Shown: positions 1,571-16,269, numbered from the stretch's first letter. The stretch is 64,000 nucleotides of DNA from Nitrosopumilus sp. (GCA_965205675.1 OZ242186.1:1824001-1888000), one strand, 5' to 3'. The notes: generated by a model from the sequence alone, not told the origin. Program-made: numbers and translations.

Positions 1571-2735
1571 CAAATTTTTCGATTTTATTCATTGCAGAAT
1601 CTAAGACTTCAAGATTTGGTAAATATACTAATCTAAAATGCCCACTTCCATATTGTTTTCCAAATCCAGAACCATGAACAGTGAGTACACCTTTTTCTTC
1701 CAATAATTTTGTTATAAATTCCTTATCAGTTGCAAATTTATTGTTTTCAATTTTTGGAAATGCATAAAATGCACCTTTTGGATTAGAACATGATAATCCA
1801 GGCATTTCATTTAGTCGTTTGACAACAAAATCTCTGTGTTTTTTCATTTCTGAAACAAAATCATTGATGTAGTTTTGAGGTCCACGTAATGATTCCAAAG
1901 CAGCATATTGTACTGGAAGACTAGTTGCAATTCTAACTCTGGCTAATTTTGGAAGATGCTCTCGTAATTCTGTTAATTGAGGAGATTGATTAAATGCAAT
2001 ATATCCAATTCTCCAACCAGACATTAGATGAACTTTAGAAAAACCATTTAGAACAATAACTGGGGAATCACCAGCTACTTTGCCAATCCCAACAAATTTT
2101 TCATCAAATACTATCTGATCATAAATCTCATCACAAATAATGTAAAGATTATGTTGATTTGCAATATCTACTAATTCTTGTAATGCTTTTTCATTAAACA
2201 CGACTCCAGTTGGATTATTTGGACTGATGAGACATATAGCTACAGTCTTTGATGTAATTTTTGATTTAATATCATCAATATCAGGAGTAGAATTATTCAA
2301 ATCTACTGCAAATTCTACTGGAACTCCACCATGTAATCTGACATAGGAAGCATATGGAGGATAGTAGGGTCCTGGGAGTAGTACTTCATCACTTTCTTCA
2401 ACTATTGAAGAGATGACCATATCAAGTCCTTCAGACACCCCATTTGTAATTAAAATATCATCAGCAGTAATAGATAATCCTTTAGCATTTTCTTTTTTAG
2501 CAATTTCTTTTCTTAGCTCTAATAGACCTTCAGATGTAGAATAGAAATTATCACCATTGTTAATTGAACCAATCAAAGCTTGTTTTACATTATCAGGAGG
2601 TTGAAAACCAAATTGTACAGGATCACCAATGTTCAGATAATCAACCGGCATTCCTTTTTCTTCAATTTTTCTAGCAATTAGAACAATATCCCTGATAGCA
2701 TATTCTACTCCAACTACTTTTTTTGATACCTTCAA
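1551..2735 (-). CDS. Class I/II PLP-dependent aminotransferase (AlaA/AspB-like)
   Basis: LNIGDP, SPNNPTG, DEIYD, GFSK...GWRIG motifs. Confidence 0.92.
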   Translation of the reverse strand: MKVSKKVVGVEYAIRDIVLIARKIEEKGMPVDYLNIGDPVQFGFQPPDNVKQALIGSINNGDNFYSTSEGLLELRKEIAKKENAKGLSITADDILITNGVSEGLDMVISSIVEESDEVLLPGPYYPPYASYVRLHGGVPVEFAVDLNNSTPDIDDIKSKITSKTVAICLISPNNPTGVVFNEKALQELVDIANQHNLYIICDEIYDQIVFDEKFVGIGKVAGDSPVIVLNGFSKVHLMSGWRIGYIAFNQSPQLTELREHLPKLARVRIATSLPVQYAALESLRGPQNYINDFVSEMKKHRDFVVKRLNEMPGLSCSNPKGAFYAFPKIENNKFATDKEFITKLLEEKGVLTVHGSGFGKQYGSGHFRLVYLPNLEVLDSAMNKIEKFVSSSKL

Positions 2736-3039
2736 AGTATCTAGACAAATATTTAGACCATACTTTACTATAGCTATTTTTATTCATTTGATCAATTTTT
2801 CATGTAATCTCATGGTTTCGCTTTTTTCATTTGATAGAGTTGTGACTTTTACGCCTAATCCCCTACCTTTTCAGGACCAGAAATAATGAGACCTCAAAGT
2901 ATGGATCTTCGTGTAAAGTAGCAATAAGACTTTGTTGTTATTATTTCATGACTATGAATATTACCTGATATGGTTGAAGTAATACTTTGTTGTCATAATT
3001 TGTACATGTTACTATTGGAGGGAACTGGTAAGTTAGCGT

Positions 3040-3106
3040 TACACTGTTCAATCTCCGGAGCTTTTCAACTGCCTGTTAAATTAGAGACTTTTTGTGTTAA
3101 GTTAGG
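3040..3106 (+). repeat. Left terminal inverted repeat (67 bp)
   Basis: tacactgttcaatctccggagcttttcaactgcctgttaaattagagactttttgtgttaagttagg. Confidence 0.92.
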
Positions 3107-3109
3107 GTC

Positions 3110-5281
3110 TTAATTCAGATCAAGAGGTTTCCAGTCTGAAAAATCCTTTTCATCATACTCATATTCCTCATTGTCATTGTACAACCATTCACCATTCTCA
3201 AATACTGCAATACCACCAAAAACCTTCTTGGACTTGTTGTTTCTGATGTATCTAGATAATGCCTCTGCCTTTGGTTTGGCAATCTTGGCTGTAAATCCTG
3301 CTTTTGTGTCGTATAGACCTATTCTGCCATCATTCATGCGAATAACAAAGTCAACATAAAATGCGTGAGGTTCTCCAGTCTCAGGATCATCATACTTTAT
3401 GGCAAAGTATTTCTTGTCATTGACCTCATTTTTAAACCACCATTTCACGTTATTTTCTTCTTCAAGAAAATCCATGAATCGGATCTCATTTTGTATGTCT
3501 GTTTTGATATAAGCTGGTGACATTATGCATTTTTTGTAGTCTTTTTTGTCATAGACTTTGGTATATTCTGTATTTTTTGGTATATTCCATTTTTGAATAT
3601 CTTCTGTTTCACGATTGATTTTTTCAACAACATCTCTGGTAAACTGAGATTTTGATTCAGATATTGCCCTGATAAAATGATCCTTATTTTTTGTAGACAA
3701 TGTTATGTTTGCCATGTCCATAAGATCAGTTATTTTGGTGTTTTTCTCAAAAAATTGATGAATACATCTTTTTATGATTCCGTGAGAGTGTTCTTTTGCG
3801 AAAGGTTCTGACATTTCTCTTGCAAATGAATCGAATCTATTTTGTAAATTCATTGCATCAGATTGTCTAATCAGTAAAGTTCCTTGAAGACTTTGGTTTT
3901 TATCCAATTCTATAATCTCTGCATCAGATATTAGATTCTGTTCTAATTGTGGAACATTCAATGAAATTTTATCTATGATATGTTGTCTGTTTGCAACATT
4001 AGAAAAGATCTTGCGAAATTCTGCATTAAGACGAGTTTTTTCATGTTTTCGTTTTATGTATATGGATTTTAGATCAATATCCTCATGAAGATCTTCTCTT
4101 CGTATGGACTCATAAATTGTAATATAGTCTCTTGTGACATCTTCGGCAATCTGTACTTCTTCAATGTTTGTGTATACATAGGCATGATTTAATTCATCAT
4201 TATCATAATGTCTTATTTCTGGCATTCTAATTATTCTGCCTATTGTCTGTATAGAAAATTCAAATTTTTTCCATTCTCTAAATAACACAAGAATTGATGA
4301 ACGTGGACAATCCCATCCTACAGTAATTGCCTGTTTAAAGATTAAAACTTCAACCTCATTTTCATTTTTTTCAATATTTTCAAGATTTACCTTGTTGTCT
4401 TTGTCTGAAAGATAAATTGCAAGTTTACCATTGTTTGTATTTATTCCAAACCTTGAGTTCAAGAGTTCGATTACTTGATCTTTTCTATCCGACATTCCTT
4501 TGCGTGAATCAGGTAATTGTATTAATACCAGAGGATTCACACTAGAATTTTCATTCTCATAACTTTTCTTTAATTCCTGTCTTTTTTCAAGAGCTGTCTT
4601 TATGATTAATTCATCTGTTGTGCTACCTTGAGTATTTCCAAGATGATAATTTAATCTTACAGAATTTTTCACCATCTCTTCATCTTTGACTTCTTGAAGA
4701 TCAATACTTTGAACATAATCAGTATCAGAAATTTTAGGCGTAGCTGAAACCTCTATCGTTACCTTTGGGTTTATTTTTTGGATTATTTCTCTTGATTTTT
4801 CAGAGCTTGCAGTATGATGACTTTCATCAATGATTAGGATTATTTCTCTACCTTCATCTTTTGTATTTTCTATGACTTTTGATAGATTAAACTCATTTTC
4901 ATTTTCTCGTATGTAGATATTTTTTTCTTGGTTTATACTCTGCCAGTTGAAAAACAAGATTTCTTTATCCTGTATCTGTTTGTCTTGTAAATCATTGAAA
5001 TTTGCACATCCTACAGTTTGTAAATCCTCGTAATATTTTTCTAATTTTTCCTTACTTTGGTCATGTAGTTTATGAACAGTAATCCAAATAAATGCAATTT
5101 CTTTTCCATCCTTTCTATTATCTACAAGTCTCTTGATCAGTTCAGCCATCATGATTGTCTTACCTGATCCAGTCGGAGACTTGAAAATGCAAATTTTCTT
5201 TGATTCTAAATTAAGAAATTCATCTATTTTTTGTTTTAACTCACTTACGTGTTTTTCTTGATAATTTCTTAGTCTGAACAT
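3110..5281 (-). CDS. res: Type III-like restriction endonuclease Res subunit (SF2 helicase + PD-(D/E)xK nuclease)
   Basis: SPTGSGKT Walker A, IDESHH, GWDCPR, QTIGRIIR, C-terminal FYVDF...YDTK; likely start MFRLRNYQ at 5281. Confidence 0.88.
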   Translation of the reverse strand: MFRLRNYQEKHVSELKQKIDEFLNLESKKICIFKSPTGSGKTIMMAELIKRLVDNRKDGKEIAFIWITVHKLHDQSKEKLEKYYEDLQTVGCANFNDLQDKQIQDKEILFFNWQSINQEKNIYIRENENEFNLSKVIENTKDEGREIILIIDESHHTASSEKSREIIQKINPKVTIEVSATPKISDTDYVQSIDLQEVKDEEMVKNSVRLNYHLGNTQGSTTDELIIKTALEKRQELKKSYENENSSVNPLVLIQLPDSRKGMSDRKDQVIELLNSRFGINTNNGKLAIYLSDKDNKVNLENIEKNENEVEVLIFKQAITVGWDCPRSSILVLFREWKKFEFSIQTIGRIIRMPEIRHYDNDELNHAYVYTNIEEVQIAEDVTRDYITIYESIRREDLHEDIDLKSIYIKRKHEKTRLNAEFRKIFSNVANRQHIIDKISLNVPQLEQNLISDAEIIELDKNQSLQGTLLIRQSDAMNLQNRFDSFAREMSEPFAKEHSHGIIKRCIHQFFEKNTKITDLMDMANITLSTKNKDHFIRAISESKSQFTRDVVEKINRETEDIQKWNIPKNTEYTKVYDKKDYKKCIMSPAYIKTDIQNEIRFMDFLEEENNVKWWFKNEVNDKKYFAIKYDDPETGEPHAFYVDFVIRMNDGRIGLYDTKAGFTAKIAKPKAEALSRYIRNNKSKKVFGGIAVFENGEWLYNDNEEYEYDEKDFSDWKPLDLN

Positions 5282-6918
5282 ACGCAAATATCCTCTTGTA
5301 TACATTTAGTATTGCGGAAGGTATTGGTTTTAAAGTTACTAATGATCGGATATTTTCAAACTCATCTGTATTTACTTCATCAGTCAATGAAAATACATAC
5401 GTATTGATTTTTTTATCCAATTTTAGAACCTCTTTTTTGAATGATTCTATTCCATCATTAATAGATAATTCCAAGATATTTATTCTCATGATTCTTGAAT
5501 ATTTTGAATTGTTTTCCTTTTTTGACTAGTTCAAAACAATCTTCTTTTAAGCATAACATTTCTGTTGATTGTTCCACCATCACCCTCTTATTCTGATCTG
5601 TTGGTTCTGAATCTACAAACAAAGTTTTGAAATATTTGAGATTACCACCTAATCCGTCTATTTTTTTATCTTTGACACTCTTGTAACCCTTGATCACTTT
5701 TTTTAATCTTGGATAACAAACATCAGTACAAATATTATTTTCATTATTTGTACAGAGAATAAATTTTCTGTTTCCTTCATCCTCTTTATTCAATTCCATT
5801 ACTGCATGTCCTGTAGTTCCCGAACCCGCAAAGAAATCTAAAATCAAGGACTCTTTGTTTGAGGCAATTTGTAAAATCCTTTTAATTAGTCTAACTGGTT
5901 TTGGTGTAGAAAATACATCATCAGGCAAAATATTTTGTAGTTCTTGTTTTGCTTCTTGATTATCTCCAGCTTCATCTCTTAACCAAATTGTTTTTGGTAT
6001 TACTCCATCTCTAACATCTGATAAAAATCGCTTAAATCTAGGCACATTATTTCCAGATTTTCCAAAATATATCCTATTATCTTTTATCAATTCATCAAGT
6101 TTTCTTTTTGAAAATCTCCAACTTGTACCTTTAGGAGGCATAATTTTTCTACCACTTGGAGTTATTATTTCATATATGTCTTTTTGATTTGGAGTTTTCA
6201 CTTGTAATGGACCTGATGCCCAAACACCTCGAGAATCATTATCTTGATTTTTATAAATTGATAATTGAGATTCCATTCGGGTTAAAAGATTAATTTTTAA
6301 TTTTTTTGAATCTCGTGCATATACAAAAATAAAATCATGATTGTCTGAAAAATATTTTGCATCATTAGAAGACGTATGTTTTTTCTGCCATATTAAAGTG
6401 GCAATAAAATTATTTTCATCAAAAATTTCATTACATAATAATTTTAATTGAGCTTGTTCATTATCATCAATAGAAATAAAAATAATTCCTTTTGAAGAGA
6501 GTAATTTCTTTGCCAGTTCTAATCTCTTTTTCATAAATGATAGCCATTTACTGTGTTTGTATGTATCTTCTCTATCTACAATCTTATCATTATACGTAAA
6601 TTCATTTCCAAGATTATAAGGAGGATCAATATAGATAACATCTATTTTTTCTTTATGACTATAATTCAAAACTGAAAGTGCATGATAATTATCTCCTTCA
6701 ATCAAAATATTATTGGGTTTTGATTTATCTTCAATTCCATTTTTTGTAACATCTTTTAGAACTGGAAGTTTTTTCTTTACTTCTTCTTCAAAAACTTCTT
6801 TAACTCTTTCCTCATCCCAAATTAGACCATATTTTTTTCTCTTGTTCAGTTTTTGAATTTCTTTAACAAGTTCTGGTTTACTCCATTTTTTATAATCGAT
6901 TTTTCCGTTAACTGCCAT
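5241..6918 (-). pseudogene. mod: Type III-like adenine DNA methyltransferase Mod, frameshifted near the C-terminus (5458-6918 plus 5241-~5460)
   Basis: EGDN, YIDPPYN, FSTPKP, LDFFAGSGTTGHA (beta-class order); removing one A at ...ATC TAT TAA TGAT GGA fuses to the downstream frame DGIESFKKEV. Confidence 0.82.
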
Positions 6919-6924
6919 GAATCA

Positions 6925-7062
6925 TCACTTTGATTTTTTTGGGTTACGATCCCAGTAGACACTTTTGCACTTTGCACAACGTAATGGTTTTTCTCCATCT
7001 CTAGACAACCATTCATGATCACATCTACAACATTTCCAAACCTTGCGTGTAACCGTTGGCAT
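6925..7062 (-). CDS. 45-aa Zn-ribbon protein (not in the ORF track), immediately upstream of mod
   Basis: MPTVTRKVWKCCRCDHEWLSRDGEKPLRCAKCKSVYWDRNPKKSK; CxxC...CxxC with HEW/YW; ends 6 nt before the mod ATG. Confidence 0.75.
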   Translation of the reverse strand: MPTVTRKVWKCCRCDHEWLSRDGEKPLRCAKCKSVYWDRNPKKSK

Positions 7063-7112
7063 CACTAAAGGTGATCACCACTTCTATAAAAACATTCACT
7101 AAAAGTGATCAC
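7062..7112. promoter_or_regulatory. Twin 17-bp direct repeats, each with internal dyad symmetry (operator-like)
   Basis: tcactaaaggtgatcac (7062-7078) and tcactaaaagtgatcac (7096-7112) in the divergent intergenic region. Confidence 0.55.
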
Positions 7113-7155
7113 TTAAAATATTAAAATTTATATACACTATTAGAGTCCACTAATA

Positions 7156-8505
7156 GTGATGTCTACAAACAATAAAAGAAAACAAAAAGCAACACAAATT
7201 TTCTCAAAGACAAACTCAATTAGAAAAATTACAAATAATCACTATGTTGTAAATTCACAAAATTCAGATAAAAAATATAACATCAAAAAATTGTCCAAAG
7301 TTGATGTATGGACTTGTGAGTGTAAAGATTTTCATTATAGATTGAGAAAAATGGATGATAAGCATTGCAAACATATTCGAGCTTGTTTGTTACTTCAAGA
7401 TACAATAAACATAGAAAATAAAATAGAGAAAACAGAACAACCTCAAGTTTGTCCAAAATGTAGTTCTACTACAATAATTAAACGTGGATTTAGGAAATTA
7501 AAGAATGGTACAAAGAGACAAAAATATGGTTGTAAACAATGTAATCGTAAATTCATTTTGGGTGAGAACGGATTTTCCAAAGTTTCATCTGATCCAAAAA
7601 TAATCTCTGAATGCCTTAACTTGGTTATGTCGGGTGTTTCATACAGAAATATTGCAAGACATGTTTACTCTACACATGAAATTAAAATTAGTCATGTATC
7701 TGTAAATAACTGGATAAAGAAATACACTTACATGATTAAAGAATATGTGGAATCATTTTATCCTGAATTAGGTGATGTGTGGTCACTTGATGAAATGTAT
7801 CTTAATGTTAAAAATACAAAGAAAACAGGTAAAGGATTTCATGACTGGTTATGGAGTATCATTGACCCAAAAACTAGATTTCTAATTGCTACAGAAGTTT
7901 CCAAAAAGAGGGAAATTTCAGATGCAAGAAAGATTATTGCAAGGGGTAAAAAATCAATCTCAAAAAACCCAAATTATGTTCTAACTGATTCTCTAAACTC
8001 ATACCAAGAAGCAATCAGAAAAGAGTTTGAAAATAGAACTGCACATGTGAGAACCAAATCTCTCAAAGATGGATTTGTGAATAGACCTATCGAAAGATAC
8101 CACAATGAAATTAGGGAAAATACTAAAACTAGACGTGGACTAGGTAACGATGATTCTGCTCAAGACTTTGTAGAACTGTTAAAGATTAATCATAATTTTG
8201 TAAAACCACATCAAGGATTAAAAGGTAAAACGCCAGCTCAAGCTGCAAATATTGACTTGAATCTGGGCAATGACAAATATTTAGATTTAATCAAACAAGC
8301 TGGAAGCAAACCAAATTTTGTAAATAATCTAGGGAAACGAATCAAGAAAGTAACTATTGTAAATGAAGGTGATTGTATCAGGATAATTCCTAAATGTTGG
8401 ATCGATAAACACATCTGGCGAGAGATTAATGATATATTGAGACTATATGGATTTGCATGGTTATCTAATGGAAAAGACAGTTATTGGATCAAGCTAGTTT
8501 CCTAA
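7156..8505 (+). CDS. DDE transposase (IS6-like) with N-terminal SWIM Zn finger and Zn ribbon
   Basis: CECKDF...CKHI (SWIM), CPKC...CKQC, SYRNIA HTH, WSLDEMY / VLTDSL..Y / IERYHNEIR catalytic triad, TPAQAA. Confidence 0.88.
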   Translation: MMSTNNKRKQKATQIFSKTNSIRKITNNHYVVNSQNSDKKYNIKKLSKVDVWTCECKDFHYRLRKMDDKHCKHIRACLLLQDTINIENKIEKTEQPQVCPKCSSTTIIKRGFRKLKNGTKRQKYGCKQCNRKFILGENGFSKVSSDPKIISECLNLVMSGVSYRNIARHVYSTHEIKISHVSVNNWIKKYTYMIKEYVESFYPELGDVWSLDEMYLNVKNTKKTGKGFHDWLWSIIDPKTRFLIATEVSKKREISDARKIIARGKKSISKNPNYVLTDSLNSYQEAIRKEFENRTAHVRTKSLKDGFVNRPIERYHNEIRENTKTRRGLGNDDSAQDFVELLKINHNFVKPHQGLKGKTPAQAANIDLNLGNDKYLDLIKQAGSKPNFVNNLGKRIKKVTIVNEGDCIRIIPKCWIDKHIWREINDILRLYGFAWLSNGKDSYWIKLVS

Positions 8506-8536
8506 ACTTTTTGTATGTGTAAAATTCATCAAAATC

Positions 8537-8635
8537 ATGAAAACATTTTGTAAATGTGGATGTCAAACACCACTAACTGATTACGAGTATCGTAAATTTT
8601 CAGGATATAAAAGAGGGCATGAACCATTACCATAA
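8537..8635 (+). CDS. 32-aa Cys-rich micro-ORF (CKCGC...GH)
   Basis: MKTFCKCGCQTPLTDYEYRKFSGYKRGHEPLP. Confidence 0.4.
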   Translation: MKTFCKCGCQTPLTDYEYRKFSGYKRGHEPLP

Positions 8636-8654
8636 TTTTATTCAATGAATAGTC

Positions 8655-8822
8655 ATGTTAGGTATAGAAGTATCAGATCAAGAAATAGTCAAAAGACTAA
8701 AGGAAACAATAGAATTTCTCAAAGTTGAATCTGTTGGAGGTATGTGGAATACGCCTCAACTAATAGATATGCTAGAGGATTTACTTAAAGAAGATTCCAA
8801 GATTTACAAAAATAATAATTAA
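8655..8822 (+). CDS. 55-aa hypothetical protein
   Basis: MLGIEVSDQEIVKRLKETIEFLKVESVGGMWNTPQLIDMLEDLLKEDSKIYKNNN, inside the right TIR. Confidence 0.45.
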   Translation: MLGIEVSDQEIVKRLKETIEFLKVESVGGMWNTPQLIDMLEDLLKEDSKIYKNNN

Positions 8823-8854
8823 AAATTCCAGTTATTTTTTCAATATGAAAAGCA

Positions 8855-8921
8855 CCTAACTTCACACAAAAAGTCTCTAATTTAACACCCTGTTGAAAAG
8901 CTCCGGAGATTGAACAGTGTA
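8855..8921 (-). repeat. Right terminal inverted repeat (67 bp)
   Basis: Reverse complement of 3040-3106 with 4 mismatches. Confidence 0.92.
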
Positions 8922-9066
8922 CAAATCTTATTGCTGGTAAGTGTCGAGGCTTTTATTTATCTGACTTTCTTCTATGGATCTGTTAAGTAATTAGTAGATA
9001 GTCTACAAATTTTCTTCCTGTTAAGGGTCGCTATCTGGTATTTTTTTAGGAATTGTCCAGTAATTC

Positions 9067-10385
9067 CAGTAGATGGGAAAGTAACTCAATTTAGATCAAA
9101 AACTATCAATCACTCAATCAATCTATTCAGATAGAAAAAGCTTGATGGAAGTATGTCACTCCATCAAATATGCATTGTACTTCATTTGATACCATGACAC
9201 ACCAAGGCGTGATACTATCTAAAGCATTTGAGATTATCACTAAAATAATGTACAATATCTTGTTGTTTCCGTGCTCTAGTAAAAATAACTCACGGTTCCA
9301 CAATGCTGATGCACACAATTCTATCATGTCATTGTGTTTGGGAAATTCATATTCTGAATCTGGATTAAAGAGACTGGCAATGGAATCAGATAATGCTTCT
9401 CCAACTGGTTCATGGTTGAGAAAAATCATATCAAAAATATCACAAAAAACAATGCAAATTCAATTACATCAGTCACTAGATAGTACAGTATCAAAATTAC
9501 AAGAACTGGGAGTATTGGAGCAACCAGTTACTGTAGCAATTGACAAACATCTAATCCCAAGATATGACAAATTGCCAAACCATTCTTTAATAAAATCAAA
9601 ATCAAAAAACAGTACTACTCATTTTGAGAGTTACTGCACCATGCAGTGCGTTGAAAAAAGAATCAGGGCTCAACTAGGTTGTTATCCTTTGTATGACAAC
9701 AAATCAAATGCCGATTTTGTGCGTAAAGTACTCTCTGATGGCATCAATAATGGAATCAAGATTAAACTATTGCTAGTGGATAGGGAGTTTTTCACAGCTG
9801 GAACAATTTCAGAAATAAAACAAAAGAATCTGAAATTTCTAATGCCTGCAAAAAAGAATTCTCGAATCAAAGATGCAATTGTACAATACGTTAATGGAGA
9901 TAGAAAGTCAATCTCGCCATACACAATAAAATCATCATCAGGACATGTAGAATCATTTAATCTAGTTATTCTGCCAAACAAAAATGCAAGAAAAAAATCA
10001 GATATTATTGATCAGTATGTTGTGTTTGCAACAAATATTTCACCAAAAGAAATATCATATAACATACAAAACATTCCAACTGATTACAAGAAACGTTGGG
10101 GGATTGAAACAGGCTATGCATGTGTGGGAAGGTTCAGACCAAAAACCACCAGTTCAAACCAATCCATAAGATTGTTGTATTTTTACTATTCATTGATTTT
10201 GTACAATGCATGGATAATTGCTAATTTGATTATCTCAGAAGAAACTAATGTACAAAATCACAAACCAATAATATCAATTGAAATTCTCAAATATTTCTTT
10301 GTAAAGATAATTATTCATTATTTTAGAAATAACAAAAATAATTATTTTCTAGAATGTGTAACTTGAGTTACTTTCCCATCTACTG
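9067..10385 (+). mobile_element. ISH3/IS4-superfamily insertion sequence with perfect 23-bp TIRs
   Basis: cagtagatgggaaagtaactcaa (9067-9089) / ttgagttactttcccatctactg (10363-10385). Confidence 0.88.
9170..10366 (+). CDS. ISH3/IS4-superfamily transposase
   Basis: VAIDKH, LLVDREF, FATN, YKKRWGIETGY (Y-x2-R-x3-E signature). Confidence 0.88.
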   Translation: MHCTSFDTMTHQGVILSKAFEIITKIMYNILLFPCSSKNNSRFHNADAHNSIMSLCLGNSYSESGLKRLAMESDNASPTGSWLRKIISKISQKTMQIQLHQSLDSTVSKLQELGVLEQPVTVAIDKHLIPRYDKLPNHSLIKSKSKNSTTHFESYCTMQCVEKRIRAQLGCYPLYDNKSNADFVRKVLSDGINNGIKIKLLLVDREFFTAGTISEIKQKNLKFLMPAKKNSRIKDAIVQYVNGDRKSISPYTIKSSSGHVESFNLVILPNKNARKKSDIIDQYVVFATNISPKEISYNIQNIPTDYKKRWGIETGYACVGRFRPKTTSSNQSIRLLYFYYSLILYNAWIIANLIISEETNVQNHKPIISIEILKYFFVKIIIHYFRNNKNNYFLECVT

Positions 10386-10541
10386 ACATTAGAGTTCATG
10401 GCGCACTAGACTTGGATAACATGGAGACACCATCTGATGCGTATCACTCTAAGATGATAACAAACGAAATACTCATAGACCCAAGTATTCTATGGAGGAA
10501 TTACTCATGAAAGTGACACGAAATAATTTTTGGAAAGAACA
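10386..10541 (+). mobile_element. Probable IS481-like right-end remnant truncated by the ISH3 element
   Basis: Frame RVHGALDLDNMETPSDAY resembles an integrase-core C-terminus; ends ...ggaaagaaca (TGT terminus). Confidence 0.4.
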
Positions 10542-10926
10542 ATGAATGTCTTTGGATGATCACTTTTATAAGATTATAACTTTTTTCAAAAACAGGTATT
10601 TTTTCTGGATGAGATCAATCATTGGTAGAATACTTGACAACATAACGAGTTGAACTTGTCGGTCTATTAATCCCCAAATTAGTTCATTCATCATTTCCAG
10701 ACTAAAGTCAAGATACGTTTGGAAAAGAGGAAATAATTACAGAGTCATGCAAAAACTAGATCTAATCCAAGTATCATGAATAAACAAGTCAAAATGAACG
10801 AAAGTTATTGGTGAGCAAACAGGAAGAAAATACGATATGAAATAAGGGACGAACTGATTTTGGGATATAAGATAATATTAGTAAAAAGTATAAAAAACAT
10901 AATCAAGCAAATTTCAATGAACTAGA

Positions 10927-11808
10927 ATGATGTTAAATTACGATGCGCCACTATATAGACCACCTTCAGAATCTAAATCATTGATTTTTCAAGTAACACT
11001 AGGTTGTTCATTTAATGAATGTTCATTTTGTGACATGTATAGATCAAAAGAATATTCTGAAAGATCATGGGAAGATGTCAGAGCGGAAATTGACATGATG
11101 GCAGGGTATCTCCCAGATACTAGAAGGATATTTCTTGCAGATGGAGATGCATTAAATCTTGATTCAGAATATATAATCAAAATTGTAAAATATATTAGAG
11201 AAAAATTCCAAAACATTGAAAGAATTTCTTGTTATGCAATGCCTATGAATATTCTAAAGAAGACATCTGAAGAATTAAAGAAAATGAATGAAGCAGGACT
11301 TGATATGTTTTATTTAGGAATTGAAAGTGGTTCAGATATTGTGCTAAAAAAAGTAACAAAAGGTGCAATATCTAAAACAATTATCAAATCAGTAAACAAG
11401 GCAAAAGAAGCAGGATATGTCATGTCTTGTATGGTAATTTTAGGATTAGGTGGTAAAACATATTCAAAAGATCATATCAAAGGAACTGCAGAAGTACTTA
11501 GTGCATGTTCTCCAAATTATGTAGGTGCTTTGACATTATACTTGGAGAATGGAATAAAAAAAGAATTCATCGATAAATACGAAGGTGAATTTGTTAAAAT
11601 TAATGATGATGAATCACTAGAGGAACTATATGATTTGATTAATCAAATTGAAACTAGAGAAGAAATAATCTTTAGAGTAAATCATGGTTCTAATGCATAT
11701 ACCATAAAAGGTACATTTCCTCAAGATAAACAAGAAATGTTAGAGAAAGTAGAATGGATGAAACAGCATCCAGAGATTGTACGCCCACAAGGGTTACGAG
11801 GATTCTAA
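10927..11808 (+). CDS. Radical SAM protein
   Basis: YRPPSE, GCSFNECSFC (CxxxCxxC), FLADGDAL, GIESG. Confidence 0.9.
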   Translation: MMLNYDAPLYRPPSESKSLIFQVTLGCSFNECSFCDMYRSKEYSERSWEDVRAEIDMMAGYLPDTRRIFLADGDALNLDSEYIIKIVKYIREKFQNIERISCYAMPMNILKKTSEELKKMNEAGLDMFYLGIESGSDIVLKKVTKGAISKTIIKSVNKAKEAGYVMSCMVILGLGGKTYSKDHIKGTAEVLSACSPNYVGALTLYLENGIKKEFIDKYEGEFVKINDDESLEELYDLINQIETREEIIFRVNHGSNAYTIKGTFPQDKQEMLEKVEWMKQHPEIVRPQGLRGF

Positions 11809-14848: not shown

Positions 14849-14990
14849 GCCTTTGTTTGGATTTTTTCTAATCTGTTTGTAATCTTTTTTGGAGAAGAGT
14901 ATTTACGAACCTTGGAACTAGACTCATTTTTTATGCTATCTGATTTCCTTGCTTTCTTATTCACATATATACCCCAGATCATAAGTCTTT

Positions 14991-15989
14991 TCAATTTATT
15001 GTTCTTGCAAAATACTGATACATATTCAAATTAAATTTGTGGGTTCTAAAATATTCCATAACTGTATGCCTCATTTCATGAATAGATTCATAAAATTCTG
15101 ATTCAACATTAACATGTTTGCACTGTCTCCAAATCTCTTCAATCATACTCAAATGTGGAGAACCTCTTGGAAGATATGCCAGTTTGACATCTTTGTTTTT
15201 ATGTAGATATTCTTTCATATCATTAGCTTTGTGTTGTGGCGCTCTATCGACGATAACAAATATTTTTCCAAATTTTCTACGAGCTGCTTGCAAATAATCT
15301 ATAAATTCAACTGAGTTAAATTTTTCATACGATCTAAAAAAACTTTGATTATCATCAGTCATCATTCCATAAACCAAAAATCTTTGGTGCGATCCTCTCC
15401 AACGTACAATTAATCTTTGGTGTGTATCTGTCCAGTATTTTTTACCAAGACGTACATCGTCTACAAATACAGACTCGTCTTGGATGAATACTGTAAAACC
15501 TTTCTTTTTTGCCTTTTCTATGCGTGAAATGATGCGGTTTTTCCACTTGCGGCATGTATCCTTGGATGCGGCACGTACATGTAGTTTTTGTGGAACCTTT
15601 GGTTTTAGATTCCATTTGTGCATCAAACGACGCACATGAGTGATATGATATGTGATGCGTGTTCTGTAAAATATGAATTGTGTCAGTTTTTTTGGAGTCA
15701 TGCCGTCTGAAATTTTCTTAAATGTACGCTCTATTTTTTGTAATTTTTTATGTGAAATTAATGGCGGACGGCCAGAACGAGGGAGATCCTCCAGGCCCTC
15801 TAGTCCGTATTTTTCAAATGAATCTAGCCAGTTCCTTACAGAATTGCAGGTACAAAACATTTGGTTGGCAGTTTCAGCAATTGTGGATTTATTGATTTTA
15901 ATCTTACACATTGCATGTAATCTTGTTTTTTTGTGAATATTTTTTTCTTTTTTGTAGGCCTGGAGTAACTCGTCATTTGTGATGCCCAT
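14991..15989 (-). CDS. IS630-family transposase (single ORF)
   Basis: GLEDLPRSGRPP HTH region, FIQDES, IVDRAPQH, YLPRGSPHLSMIEEIW. Confidence 0.88.
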   Translation of the reverse strand: MGITNDELLQAYKKEKNIHKKTRLHAMCKIKINKSTIAETANQMFCTCNSVRNWLDSFEKYGLEGLEDLPRSGRPPLISHKKLQKIERTFKKISDGMTPKKLTQFIFYRTRITYHITHVRRLMHKWNLKPKVPQKLHVRAASKDTCRKWKNRIISRIEKAKKKGFTVFIQDESVFVDDVRLGKKYWTDTHQRLIVRWRGSHQRFLVYGMMTDDNQSFFRSYEKFNSVEFIDYLQAARRKFGKIFVIVDRAPQHKANDMKEYLHKNKDVKLAYLPRGSPHLSMIEEIWRQCKHVNVESEFYESIHEMRHTVMEYFRTHKFNLNMYQYFARTIN

Positions 15990-16049
15990 GAAATTATTTC
16001 TAACTACTGATCAAAAAGTATTGCTATTTGTTTTGAAAAATTGCAAAGA

Positions 16050-16269
16050 ATTATGCTCCGAGGTATATGCAGATAGAAAAGTTCCAATTGAACCTTTATT
16101 TGAGTATCTCAAAGATATTTTTGACATCAGAGTATTGCCTGTAAAGGGATTGTACAATGTCAAATCATTTGTGTTGGTTTGTGTTCTTGTGTATAAGTTA
16201 ACAGTTTACTACAACTGTGCAATGGGTGCAGAGAATCCAAGAATTTTAAAGAGAATGCTGTGCTGTTAG
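16050..16269 (+). pseudogene. C-terminal fragment of another DDE transposase
   Basis: YADRKVPIEPLFEYLKDIF...PVKG (Y-x2-R-x3/4-E-like); 5' part missing where IS630 lies. Confidence 0.55.

Follow-up and report, generated by a model that had tools for sequence, protein, structure and literature searches.

We analysed a 64,000-nt stretch of DNA (the window) from Nitrosopumilus sp., which covers positions 1824001-1888000 of the single 2.01-Mb contig of its source genome (G000:C1; the genome is called G000 below). Positions 3040-8921 of the window hold a mobile element of 5,882 bp, E1, in which one transposase, a Type III restriction-modification (R-M) operon made up of res and mod, and three small open reading frames (ORFs) lie within a single pair of inverted ends (Table 1). 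The evidence set out below indicates that E1 is, very probably, a unit (non-composite) transposon from an archaeal, ISDsp3-like branch of the IS6 family.

A search for inverted repeats across positions 2000-10500 returned as its best pair two 72-nt arms that are 92% complementary and separated by a gap of 5,738 nt; the runners-up were the ends of a neighbouring insertion sequence (IS; 33 nt) and a 28-nt pair at 79%. By BLAST, the ends of E1 share a 67-nt core at 94.03% identity, i.e. 63 of 67 positions, as a preliminary description of this DNA had proposed, and their outermost 30 nt are the same. That description was also right about what the ends enclose: gene calls, with Pfam and PADLOC assignments, place res, mod, the small ORFs and the single transposase between 3110 and 8822. 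At 3110-3112, the stop codon of res runs into the 72-nt arm at its inner edge, hence lying 3 nt within the edge of the 67-nt core. No third end was seen beside the transposase in the repeat search or in an end search of the genome, and repeat and transposase searches of G000 found no IS copies of the same kind flanking E1. Aligning 18 ends from 11 elements (alignment A2) gave a three-part consensus consisting of TACACTGTTCAATCTTAGG, a spacer with TTTTCAA, GACTGTTCAATTAGGGTGAT and GGTGTTAAGTTAGGGTGAT. A loose version of the site motif occurs 1.79 times per 90-nt end and 0.02 times per 90 nt within elements, and its positions in the ends are fixed (about 6, 35-45 and 56-65); these densities are descriptive only, because the motif was defined after the ends had been inspected. 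The repeats are 47-86 nt long in relatives of E1, with the tip (T/G)ACAC.

Table 1. Features of E1 and its immediate flanks (window positions).
Feature	Position	Strand	Remarks
Target, left side	3021..3039	+	Shortened tip GGAACTGGTAAGTT of the end of IS6-like element X
Left terminal inverted repeat	3040..3111	+	Tip TACACTGTTCAATCT; three related sites CTGTTCAATCTCCGGAG, CTGTTAAATTAGAGAC, GTGTTAAGTTAGGGTC
res, Type III restriction subunit	3110..5305	-	731 aa, apparently intact; PF04851 1.3e-26; PADLOC REase_III 1.8e-20 (residues 156-385)
82-aa ORF	5241..5489	-	Displaced C-terminal ~70 codons of mod, in another frame
mod, Type III methyltransferase	5458..6918	-	486 aa; PF01555 1.8e-43; PADLOC MTase_III 1.4e-113
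46-aa Zn-ribbon ORF	6925..7065	-	CxRC...CxxCKSxYW; divergent from transposase
Divergent intergenic region	7066..7155	.	90 bp between Zn-ribbon/cargo operon and transposase; coordinates only
Transposase	7156..8505	+	449 aa; SWIM, Zn ribbon, helix-turn-helix (HTH), DDE core, C-terminal domain
55-aa ORF	8655..8822	+	Downstream of transposase; kept in L076 (98%) and L075 (80%)
Right terminal inverted repeat	8850..8921	-	
Target, right side	8922..9060	+	Continuation of X end, starting CAAATCTT; 99.3% identical to G000 1415212-1415350

The cargo slot of these elements lies between the left end and a core module made up of the transposase and the small divergent Zn-ribbon gene, and in E1 it is filled by the Type III R-M operon. 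E1 Res is 83% identical across 725 aa to that of a related element (L083); its helicase part is clear, and a PD-(D/E)xK-like motif near the C-terminus was spotted by eye only. E1 Mod has 486 aa as against 582-583 aa in its homologues, being truncated by a 2-nt deletion near 5458 that the preliminary description had not noticed. Indeed, homologous Mods align in two frames, with residues 1-510 stopping at 5461 and residues 513-583 corresponding to the 82-aa ORF. In contigs from public run X9, two additional letters after 5458 restore one mod frame, and runs X4 and X7 match the window form. Read from the translation, the truncated Mod retains the catalytic motifs DPPY and FxGxG. Four other elements that differ in cargo (L080, L055, L072 and L060) retain the 46-aa Zn-ribbon ORF, invariably in divergent orientation to the transposase, and that of L080 is 75% identical to its E1 counterpart, despite opposite-strand cargo and a transposase only 63% identical. 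We assign this ORF to the core module because of its conservation beside the transposase across elements with different cargo. In other members its slot is taken by an AbrB/MazE-like protein or a 92-aa ribbon protein. A complex prediction for the transposase and the 46-aa protein (score 0.00, mark 0.32) gives evidence neither way. The intergenic region between the two genes would hold the promoters of both sides. In L054 and L072, a GIY-YIG gene occupies the slot of the 55-aa ORF, next to the right end.

The transposase combines a SWIM motif (C54, C56, C71 and H73), a Zn ribbon (C99, C102, C126 and C129) and a DDE core (D212, D278 and E313) with a basic residue, R320, 7 residues past the catalytic E313, as in IS6-type DDE domains. 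All SWIM, ribbon and DDE residues, and R320, are invariant among 38 aligned sequences, and the protein matches PF13610 (DDE_Tnp_IS240) at 4.2e-14 (53.3 bits; cut-off 27), in agreement with the SWIM-Zn-DDE transposase described initially. Across 12 members of the family, Pfam recovered the IS240 DDE domain in all 12, an InsA-type ribbon in seven and SWIM in four (best SWIM E-value 1.1e-4). A C-terminal domain (residues ~388-449) is specific to the transposase subgroup of E1; Pfam gave no significant match for the isolated N-terminal 100 aa or C-terminal 71 aa. An AlphaFold model (pLDDT 77.5) matches the ISCth4 transposase (E-value 5.2e-9) and retroviral integrases, and Foldseek with the whole model returned generic DDE/integrase matches only (TM-scores of 0.23-0.30, normalised to the query). 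The best annotated plasmid matches are labelled "IS6 family transposase" (22-28% identity), the top one being from Clostridium perfringens (28% over residues 92-372, E-value 8e-26); the SWIM part and the C-terminal domain are left uncovered, because the plasmid matches listed span residues 92 to 382 at most. In the sections used here of a review of the IS6 family, zinc-finger forms make up clade h, and 450-aa forms with a further N-terminal domain make up clade i, in which ISDsp3 apparently falls (Varani et al., 2021, PMC7986276). The 449-aa transposase of E1 has the ~450-aa size, the zinc finger and the extra N-terminal domain of ISDsp3 and clade i, as compared by description. In the supplement to Krupovic et al. 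(2019, PMC6563490, file 4), 22 thaumarchaeal ORFs appear as ISDsp3-like IS6, at 48-56% in the entries consulted, and it is on this listing that the ISDsp3-like placement of the E1 transposase rests.

Relatives, target duplications and spread between species

Transposase searches of G000 gave five matches including E1 itself, the others being a full-length, 80%-identical paralogue (984329-985663), a fragment (1297963-1298328), a short C-terminal fragment (530959-531045) and a 33%-identical relative (923451-924440). The E1 end sequence is found elsewhere in G000 as 51-nt copies at 86-92% identity (208918-208968 and 1037651-1037701), a 72%-identical copy (1301260-1301328) and tips at 981548, 985946 and 1058073. 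The 80%-identical paralogue is housed in a second element, E2 (981548-985961; 4,413 bp), whose 78-nt inverted repeats match each other at 100% and have the same tip, TACACTGTTCAATCT, and inner motif, GTGTTAAGTTAGGGTG, as those of E1. The preliminary description had asked whether such ends accompany homologous transposases elsewhere and whether they surround different cargo; both are the case, since E2 has homologous ends around a Type II R-M system, and a further 17 distinct elements were found in other genomes.

A transposase match at E <= 1e-20 is present in 75 of the 201 genomes of the family, a tally that takes in G000 and three genomes flagged as unpublished, the latter three entering no other result. 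We call group A the matches that extend across all 449 residues at an identity of at least 45%; group B is more widespread and consists of ~375-aa proteins at 30-38% identity, without the C-terminal ~60 residues. Among species-representative genomes, 78 transposase loci were found. Group A records are labelled Nitrosopumilus, Nitrosotalea, Cenarchaeum, Nitrososphaera and Nitrososphaerales, and group B is found additionally in Bathyarchaeia and Methanoperedens. Of 37 group A scan loci examined for inverted repeats, 21 had candidate repeats and 16 had none; repeats of already-fetched elements, and three loci with large unrelated repeats, were removed from the candidates. The final set consists of 21 delimited group A copies (Table 2), which represent 19 distinct elements once the copy of E1 in genome G218 is collapsed with E1, and L052 with L053. 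One member, L059, encodes a 541-aa transposase with two tandem N-terminal SWIM fingers (9024-10649). Transposase copies or fragments at 79% identity also occur on a 3.3-kb contig labelled Dehalococcoidia bacterium (L071) and a 1.95-Mb chromosome labelled Lentisphaeria bacterium (L101); these could reflect mis-binning, mislabelling or transfer into bacteria.

The 21 delimited copies were tested by script for identical 8-mers flush with both outer edges. Such 8-bp duplications were detected for 10 copies, or 11 once the ends of L063 had been refined, compared with 5 chance matches in about 98,000 displaced comparisons. In group B, 11 of 13 delimited elements have them. Eight base pairs is also the length of the target duplication given for the IS6 family (Varani et al., 2021). 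By contrast, the terminal TA, once considered the only possible target duplication of E1, is simply the start of the inverted repeat (TACACTG...).

In G218, another Nitrosopumilus genome, the whole of E1 is matched (locus L066) over 5,916 nt at 99.932% identity, and CAAATCTT stands on either side of this sister copy as a perfect 8-bp duplication, which, together with the Type III R-M genes, bears out the initial proposal of a unit transposon with defence cargo. G218 has two full copies of E1, which we counted as one locus because their flanks are 99.97% identical across 11.6 kb. One of these copies is at the end of a contig bearing 80%-identical core DNA; housekeeping DNA of G218 is 87% (aminotransferase gene), 84% (radical-SAM gene) and 80% (7.6 kb) identical to that of the window. 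Public-run contigs from three studies (X4, X7 and X8) cover E1 with 0 differences in the listed pieces, and the fourth run, X9, contains a ~97% variant. The near-identity of E1, set against the divergence of core genes, argues for recent horizontal spread. A viral contig collection gave 2 weak partial matches only, with no sign there of a viral carrier. Separately, a stretch of ~7 kb (G000:C1:204413-211969; 1380-9481 of L067) is 99.5-100% identical between G000 and G218 despite the 80-87% core identity; it begins at a solo end of the E1 family, encodes an 883-aa HYR/fn3 surface protein and, judged from its sequence, looks like a second recently exchanged element.

Cargo of the family

Cargo was called by Pfam and PADLOC scans of the delimited elements (Table 2). 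Methyltransferase and/or restriction genes are present in 12 of the 19 distinct elements and represent Types I, II, IIG, III and IV-like, such that at least five kinds of R-M system are tied to the E1-type transposase family, in closely related elements. Ten further group A loci are undelimited. PADLOC matches at 1e-8 or below lie within 5 kb of the transposase in seven of them (L056, L061, L070, L079, L085, L089 and L108), and include R-M-type genes in four of the seven; these genes are counted as neighbours of the transposase, whether inside an element or outside it.

Table 2. Cargo and 8-bp target duplications of the 21 delimited group A copies.
Copy	Cargo	8-bp duplication
E1 (window)	Type III res + mod	none
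L066 (sister copy of E1 in G218)		CAAATCTT
L083	Type III res + mod	none
E2	MvaI/BcnI-type Type II endonuclease (PF15515 9.3e-48) + N4/N6 methyltransferase	AAAAAGTG
L072	HaeIII endonuclease + D12 methylase, plus GIY-YIG gene	TTTGATAG
L055	HaeIII endonuclease + D12 methylase, decayed	CTAGATTT
L057	N6_Mtase/Eco57I-type enzyme + S subunit	none
L080	N6_Mtase/Eco57I-type enzyme + S subunit	TACATTGA
L052	Like that of L057, fragmented	none
L053		none
L054	N6_N4 methylase + 232-aa protein without assigned function + GIY-YIG	none
L091	GmrSD/HNH + EcoRI methylase	AAAAATCA
L075	SNF2 helicase + Mrr-type nuclease + MT-A70	none
L063 (13.4 kb)	Type I hsdRMS + dCTP deaminase (PADLOC 5.1e-150)	CGATTTAT (ends extended)
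L064	MazE-like protein + TIR-domain protein (PDC-S35), defence candidate	ACATGAAG
L058	HTH protein + three proteins without assignment	CAAAATAC
L059	Proteases	TGATATCA
L067	HYR/fn3 surface protein	none
L060 (2.4 kb)	None	GGCACGCG
L094	None	none
L076	Internal-deletion derivative of an E1-like element; retains 3' end of res	none

At the DNA level, E1 and the elements with different cargo share the transposase gene only (67-78% identity), and the cargo is therefore exchanged as a module. L067 shows one route of exchange: its right half matches E1 at 99.95% from window position 6802 on, and it has the left end and cargo of another element, the solo end of which is at G000 208918-208968. Among group B elements in Nitrosopumilus, L021 (2891-6063; G000:C1 about 923.4-926.6 kb) carries a Type II endonuclease (PADLOC 2.3e-43) and a methylase, and L051 (12533-16558) carries a methylase and a 386-aa protein and directly adjoins a group A transposase with a Type III-like mod.

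Insertion site of the window copy

E1 sits in the end of a repeated, IS6-like element, X. The 19 nt to its left (GGAACTGGTAAGTTAGCGT) and its right flank together make up an X end, for which the consensus is GGAACTGGTAAGTTAACGAGGCAT..ACTACAAATCTT..GGTAAGTGTCGAGG, and the homology of the right flank to the G000 copy in Table 1 begins precisely at the edge of E1. The DNA beyond the tip is unrelated among X copies, one of which truncates a remnant transposase at 1297991, and the X tip resembles group B tips such as GGTTCTGGTAAGTT. In G218, E1 is inserted in another X end at the same position; this repeated use, in few cases, hints at a target preference. At 8921, loose contig ends show at least three further flanks next to the E1 tip, and two of these (in runs X4 and X7) are X-like. 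In addition, contigs from runs X4 and X8 join 3038 to 8920 with 9 other letters between, which corresponds to an uninterrupted X end without E1. These contigs are candidates for the empty-site alleles that the preliminary description had proposed to seek, but they are too short to distinguish the E1 locus from a paralogue.

Compared with the paralogue at G000 1415183 and the run contigs, the left junction in the window is without about 11-17 nt, and only the right-hand CAAATCTT is left. The 9-nt CTGGTAAGT found on both sides of E1, likewise unnoticed in the preliminary description, was rejected as a target duplication, since it belongs to the repeated end of X. Further left, window positions 2802-3018 recur in three other places in G000 at 95-99.5% identity. 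The aminotransferase gene (1551-2735) and radical-SAM gene (10927-11808) that flank the locus are each matched in 18 of 20 other genomes of the genus. In G177, G216, G189, G210 and G203 these two genes are convergent and 14-34 kb apart, whereas in the window they are divergent across 8.2 kb of mobile DNA, a difference that suggests either an inversion or a double rearrangement, one breakpoint of which would lie at the E1 site. For E2, none of 60 genomes of the genus contained the left flank, and the right flank turned up only beyond an additional solo end. The most economical reading of the window locus is insertion of E1 into an X end, followed by deletion or rearrangement at the junction.

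Mechanism, alternatives and relation to known systems

We propose that the single transposase binds the ends of the element through its N-terminal part (SWIM, Zn ribbon and HTH), with the three ~16-bp direct repeats in each 70-85-bp end as the predicted binding sites, and that its DDE core would join them to target DNA in which the two cuts are staggered by 8 bp, whether by replicative chemistry or otherwise. E1 would have landed within the end of X; the left junction may later have been shortened or rearranged, which would account for the lack of a duplication, and mod would have lost its 2 nt after this change. The R-M cargo may give the element an addiction effect and its host a benefit, and the two together would explain why each close relative carries a different R-M system.

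Several observations weigh against this picture. No target duplication is present at the window copy, where the left flank ends in GTTAGCGT and the right flank begins with CAAATCTT (the preliminary description, too, had seen no long one), and the duplication is missing from 10 of the 21 copies overall. The ends of E1 mismatch at 4 of the 67 core positions. No orthologous empty site of the E1 locus was found by synteny, the flanks being repeats and the neighbouring genes rearranged, and the joints in X4 and X8 could be paralogous copies of the target, because the contigs are short. The argument for transfer between species depends on one metagenome-assembled genome. Lastly, the link to R-M systems holds for the subgroup of E1 and not for the whole clade, because group B mostly carries small unassigned genes (29 of 33 cargo ORFs without a Pfam match at 1e-4).

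Alternatively, E1 could be a chance, non-autonomous or pseudo-composite arrangement, in which an IS6-like IS and one end came to lie beside a resident R-M operon with a stray solo end opposite. G000 is indeed rich in solo ends and remnants of the E1 family, and the L067 chimera joins a different left end and cargo to the transposase half of E1. We nonetheless consider this very improbable: the same 5,882 bp occur edge to edge, and no further, at 99.93% in another species, flanked by an 8-bp duplication; in 11 of 21 relatives, duplications directly abut the outer edges of the cargo-enclosing ends; and no third end adjoins the transposase. It is even harder to credit that the R-M genes, rather than the transposase, mobilise the unit. 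Furuta et al. (2010, PMC2853133) describe R-M units with 65-bp or 26-bp repeats and 8-bp duplications, the mover of which was left undetermined in the parts of that study used here. In our set, however, elements with unrelated cargo share only the transposase gene and the ends, and L060, L064 and L059, which are without R-M genes, still have both ends and 8-bp duplications.

It is also conceivable, if unlikely, that the element is real and its window copy a dead relic, immobile, with a non-functional R-M system and merely undeleted so far. In favour of this reading, the copy has no target duplication, ends that are only 92-94% alike, a place in a rearranged nest of repeats, and a 2-nt mod deletion that is absent from the ~97% X9 variant; the truncation of mod does suggest that this copy may be decaying. 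Nonetheless, no part of the transposase ORF is missing and every invariant residue is present, the two ends agree fully over their terminal 30 nt, and the same sequence, including the mod lesion, is found at 100% in contigs from three studies, and in a different species, which argues for very recent movement after the lesion arose. Moreover, truncation has spared the catalytic motifs of Mod, and res is intact; since a lone active Res would be lethal, Res and Mod should either both work or both be silent.

A remaining question is whether E1 and its relatives move through IS6 cointegrates at all, or instead by cut-and-paste or copy-out/paste-in, possibly with help from accessory Zn-ribbon or GIY-YIG proteins. 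Classical IS6 replicative cointegrates do not alone yield simple insertions with duplications in one chromosome, which counts against our placement, and such simple insertions are common in these single-chromosome genomes (11 of 21 in group A and 11 of 13 in group B). The transposase also has extra domains that are absent from IS26-type enzymes, and a GIY-YIG gene stands beside the right end in L054 and L072. We regard a non-IS6 chemistry as doubtful, given that the catalytic domain is of the IS240/IS6 type, that GIY-YIG genes are missing from most members, including E1, and that the lack of duplications in about half of the copies and the rearranged E1 locus are as expected of intramolecular replicative events, after which, in the sections of the IS6 review used here, replicative elements are described as losing their flanking repeats (Varani et al., 2021). 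These hints of replicative chemistry are indirect only. By eye, the inverted copies L052 and L053 in genome G038 have none of the reciprocal 8-bp flanks expected of replicative inversion.

The assignment of E1 to an IS6-derived unit transposon fits the known family in some respects only. The same sections of the review describe elements of 0.7-0.9 kb with one ORF and 15-20-bp repeats that have a GG tip and cTGTt/caaa motifs, and cargo only in two-copy pseudo-compound transposons (Varani et al., 2021), much as the preliminary description had characterised classical IS6 elements. The E1 family resembles IS26, IS257 and IS240 in its IS240-type DDE domain, the basic residue at E+7, the 8-bp duplication, a cTGTt...caa motif near the tip and the frequency of duplication-less copies. 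Of the IS6-like tip motif, only the CTGTTCAA core is shared by E1-type ends; group B has the canonical IS6 GGTTCTGT tip. Unlike those elements, E1 has a length of 5.9 kb, 72-nt three-site ends with a TACAC tip in place of short GG-tip repeats, a 449-aa transposase with SWIM and C-terminal extensions, and 3-4 kb of cargo in one end pair. ISDsp3 is said to be the sole IS6 member with a passenger gene, and clade i elements are given as 1.7 kb, with no long ends, R-M cargo or unit-transposon behaviour described in those sections (Varani et al., 2021). Similarly, in the consulted parts of Krupovic et al. (2019), thaumarchaeal IS are handled as 1-2-gene elements and no cargo-bearing IS6 transposon is described. 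In the literature that we searched, no archaeal IS6-type unit transposon with R-M cargo is described. The label of a poorly described archaeal family, and the question of a match to a catalogued one, therefore receive a divided answer: the transposase type is catalogued, as ISDsp3-like IS6, and the cargo-carrying lineage was not found described.

Tn7-like transposons have a heteromeric TnsABC machinery and make 5-bp duplications, and Tn3 elements have a large TnpA with a resolvase. Pfam found no Tn3-type TnpA or resolvase, or TnsABC, domains in any E1 ORF, and the duplications of the E1 family are 8 bp, versus 5 bp in Tn3 and Tn7-like elements. As far as the consulted parts of these papers go, the family is nonetheless comparable to defence-cargo Tn7-like transposons (Benler et al., 2021, PMC8649781) and thaumarchaeal casposons (Krupovic et al., 2019) in having variable cargo that is mostly defence, although those elements are much larger and their machinery (TnsABC; Cas1 integrase) is unrelated. 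The closest parallels in cargo are the units of Furuta et al. (2010): an X. oryzae Type II R-M system with 65-bp repeats, and an N. gonorrhoeae unit of Type IIG + S, in which the repeats are 26 bp long and a COG3677 transposase motif has decayed. They too have R-M genes in imperfect terminal inverted repeats with an 8-bp duplication, and L057 and L080 carry genes similar to those of the Type IIG + S unit. In the parts of that study used here, however, they are isolated bacterial cases with the transposase absent or decayed, and no archaeal case survived the screen, whereas the E1 family has an intact transposase that recurs with many R-M systems.

The catalytic family, and the idea of R-M systems riding mobile DNA, are thus known already; the literature searched is silent on the unit-transposon architecture, the three-site ends, the domain additions and the systematic presence of R-M cargo in ammonia-oxidising archaea. 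More broadly, and tentatively, since the balance falls slightly the other way, these elements may constitute an undescribed IS6-derived lineage of unit transposons across archaea (Nitrososphaeria, with a sister subgroup in Bathyarchaeia and Methanoperedens), defined by multi-site ends, a SWIM-fused transposase, a dedicated Zn-ribbon partner and a preference for the ends of sibling elements, and acting as a main vehicle of R-M and defence exchange between ammonia-oxidising species.

Horizontal travel of R-M systems is known, and the vehicle is seldom seen; here, one transposase family is physically tied to them, which provides a concrete mechanism for the exchange of defence genes among ammonia-oxidising archaea. 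To our knowledge, these archaea have no known plasmids and few known viruses. E1-type elements could, in addition, account for the joint enrichment of transposases and R-M genes that the consulted part of Haber et al. (2021, PMC7848895) states for some thaumarchaeal genomes. E1 further indicates that true unit transposons, equipped with long three-site ends and additional DNA-binding domains, have evolved from the IS6 catalytic core, which is otherwise known from tiny elements. Being compact, with a single transposase, well-delimited ends and a footprint of 8 bp, E1 is a candidate genetic tool for archaea that lack one.

Other mobile DNA surrounds E1. An IS with 33-nt inverted repeats and a 398-aa PF01609 (IS4/IS5-type) transposase occupies window positions 9061-10391; the 2.0-Mb genome has 12 near-full-length copies of it, itself included, at 97-99% identity, plus many fragments, and a further copy interrupts the sister element in L067. 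Positions 2802-3018 and 10392-10926 are a patchwork of MITE-like repeats of 80-230 nt, with 4-20 copies each, and copies of the left repeat (2802-3018) elsewhere end in GGTACACCGCTGTTACCTAG, which resembles another IS6-type tip. Finally, ~1.1 kb at about 14968-16067 of the window has at least 12 copies in G218 at 92-95% identity and is presumably a further shared IS.

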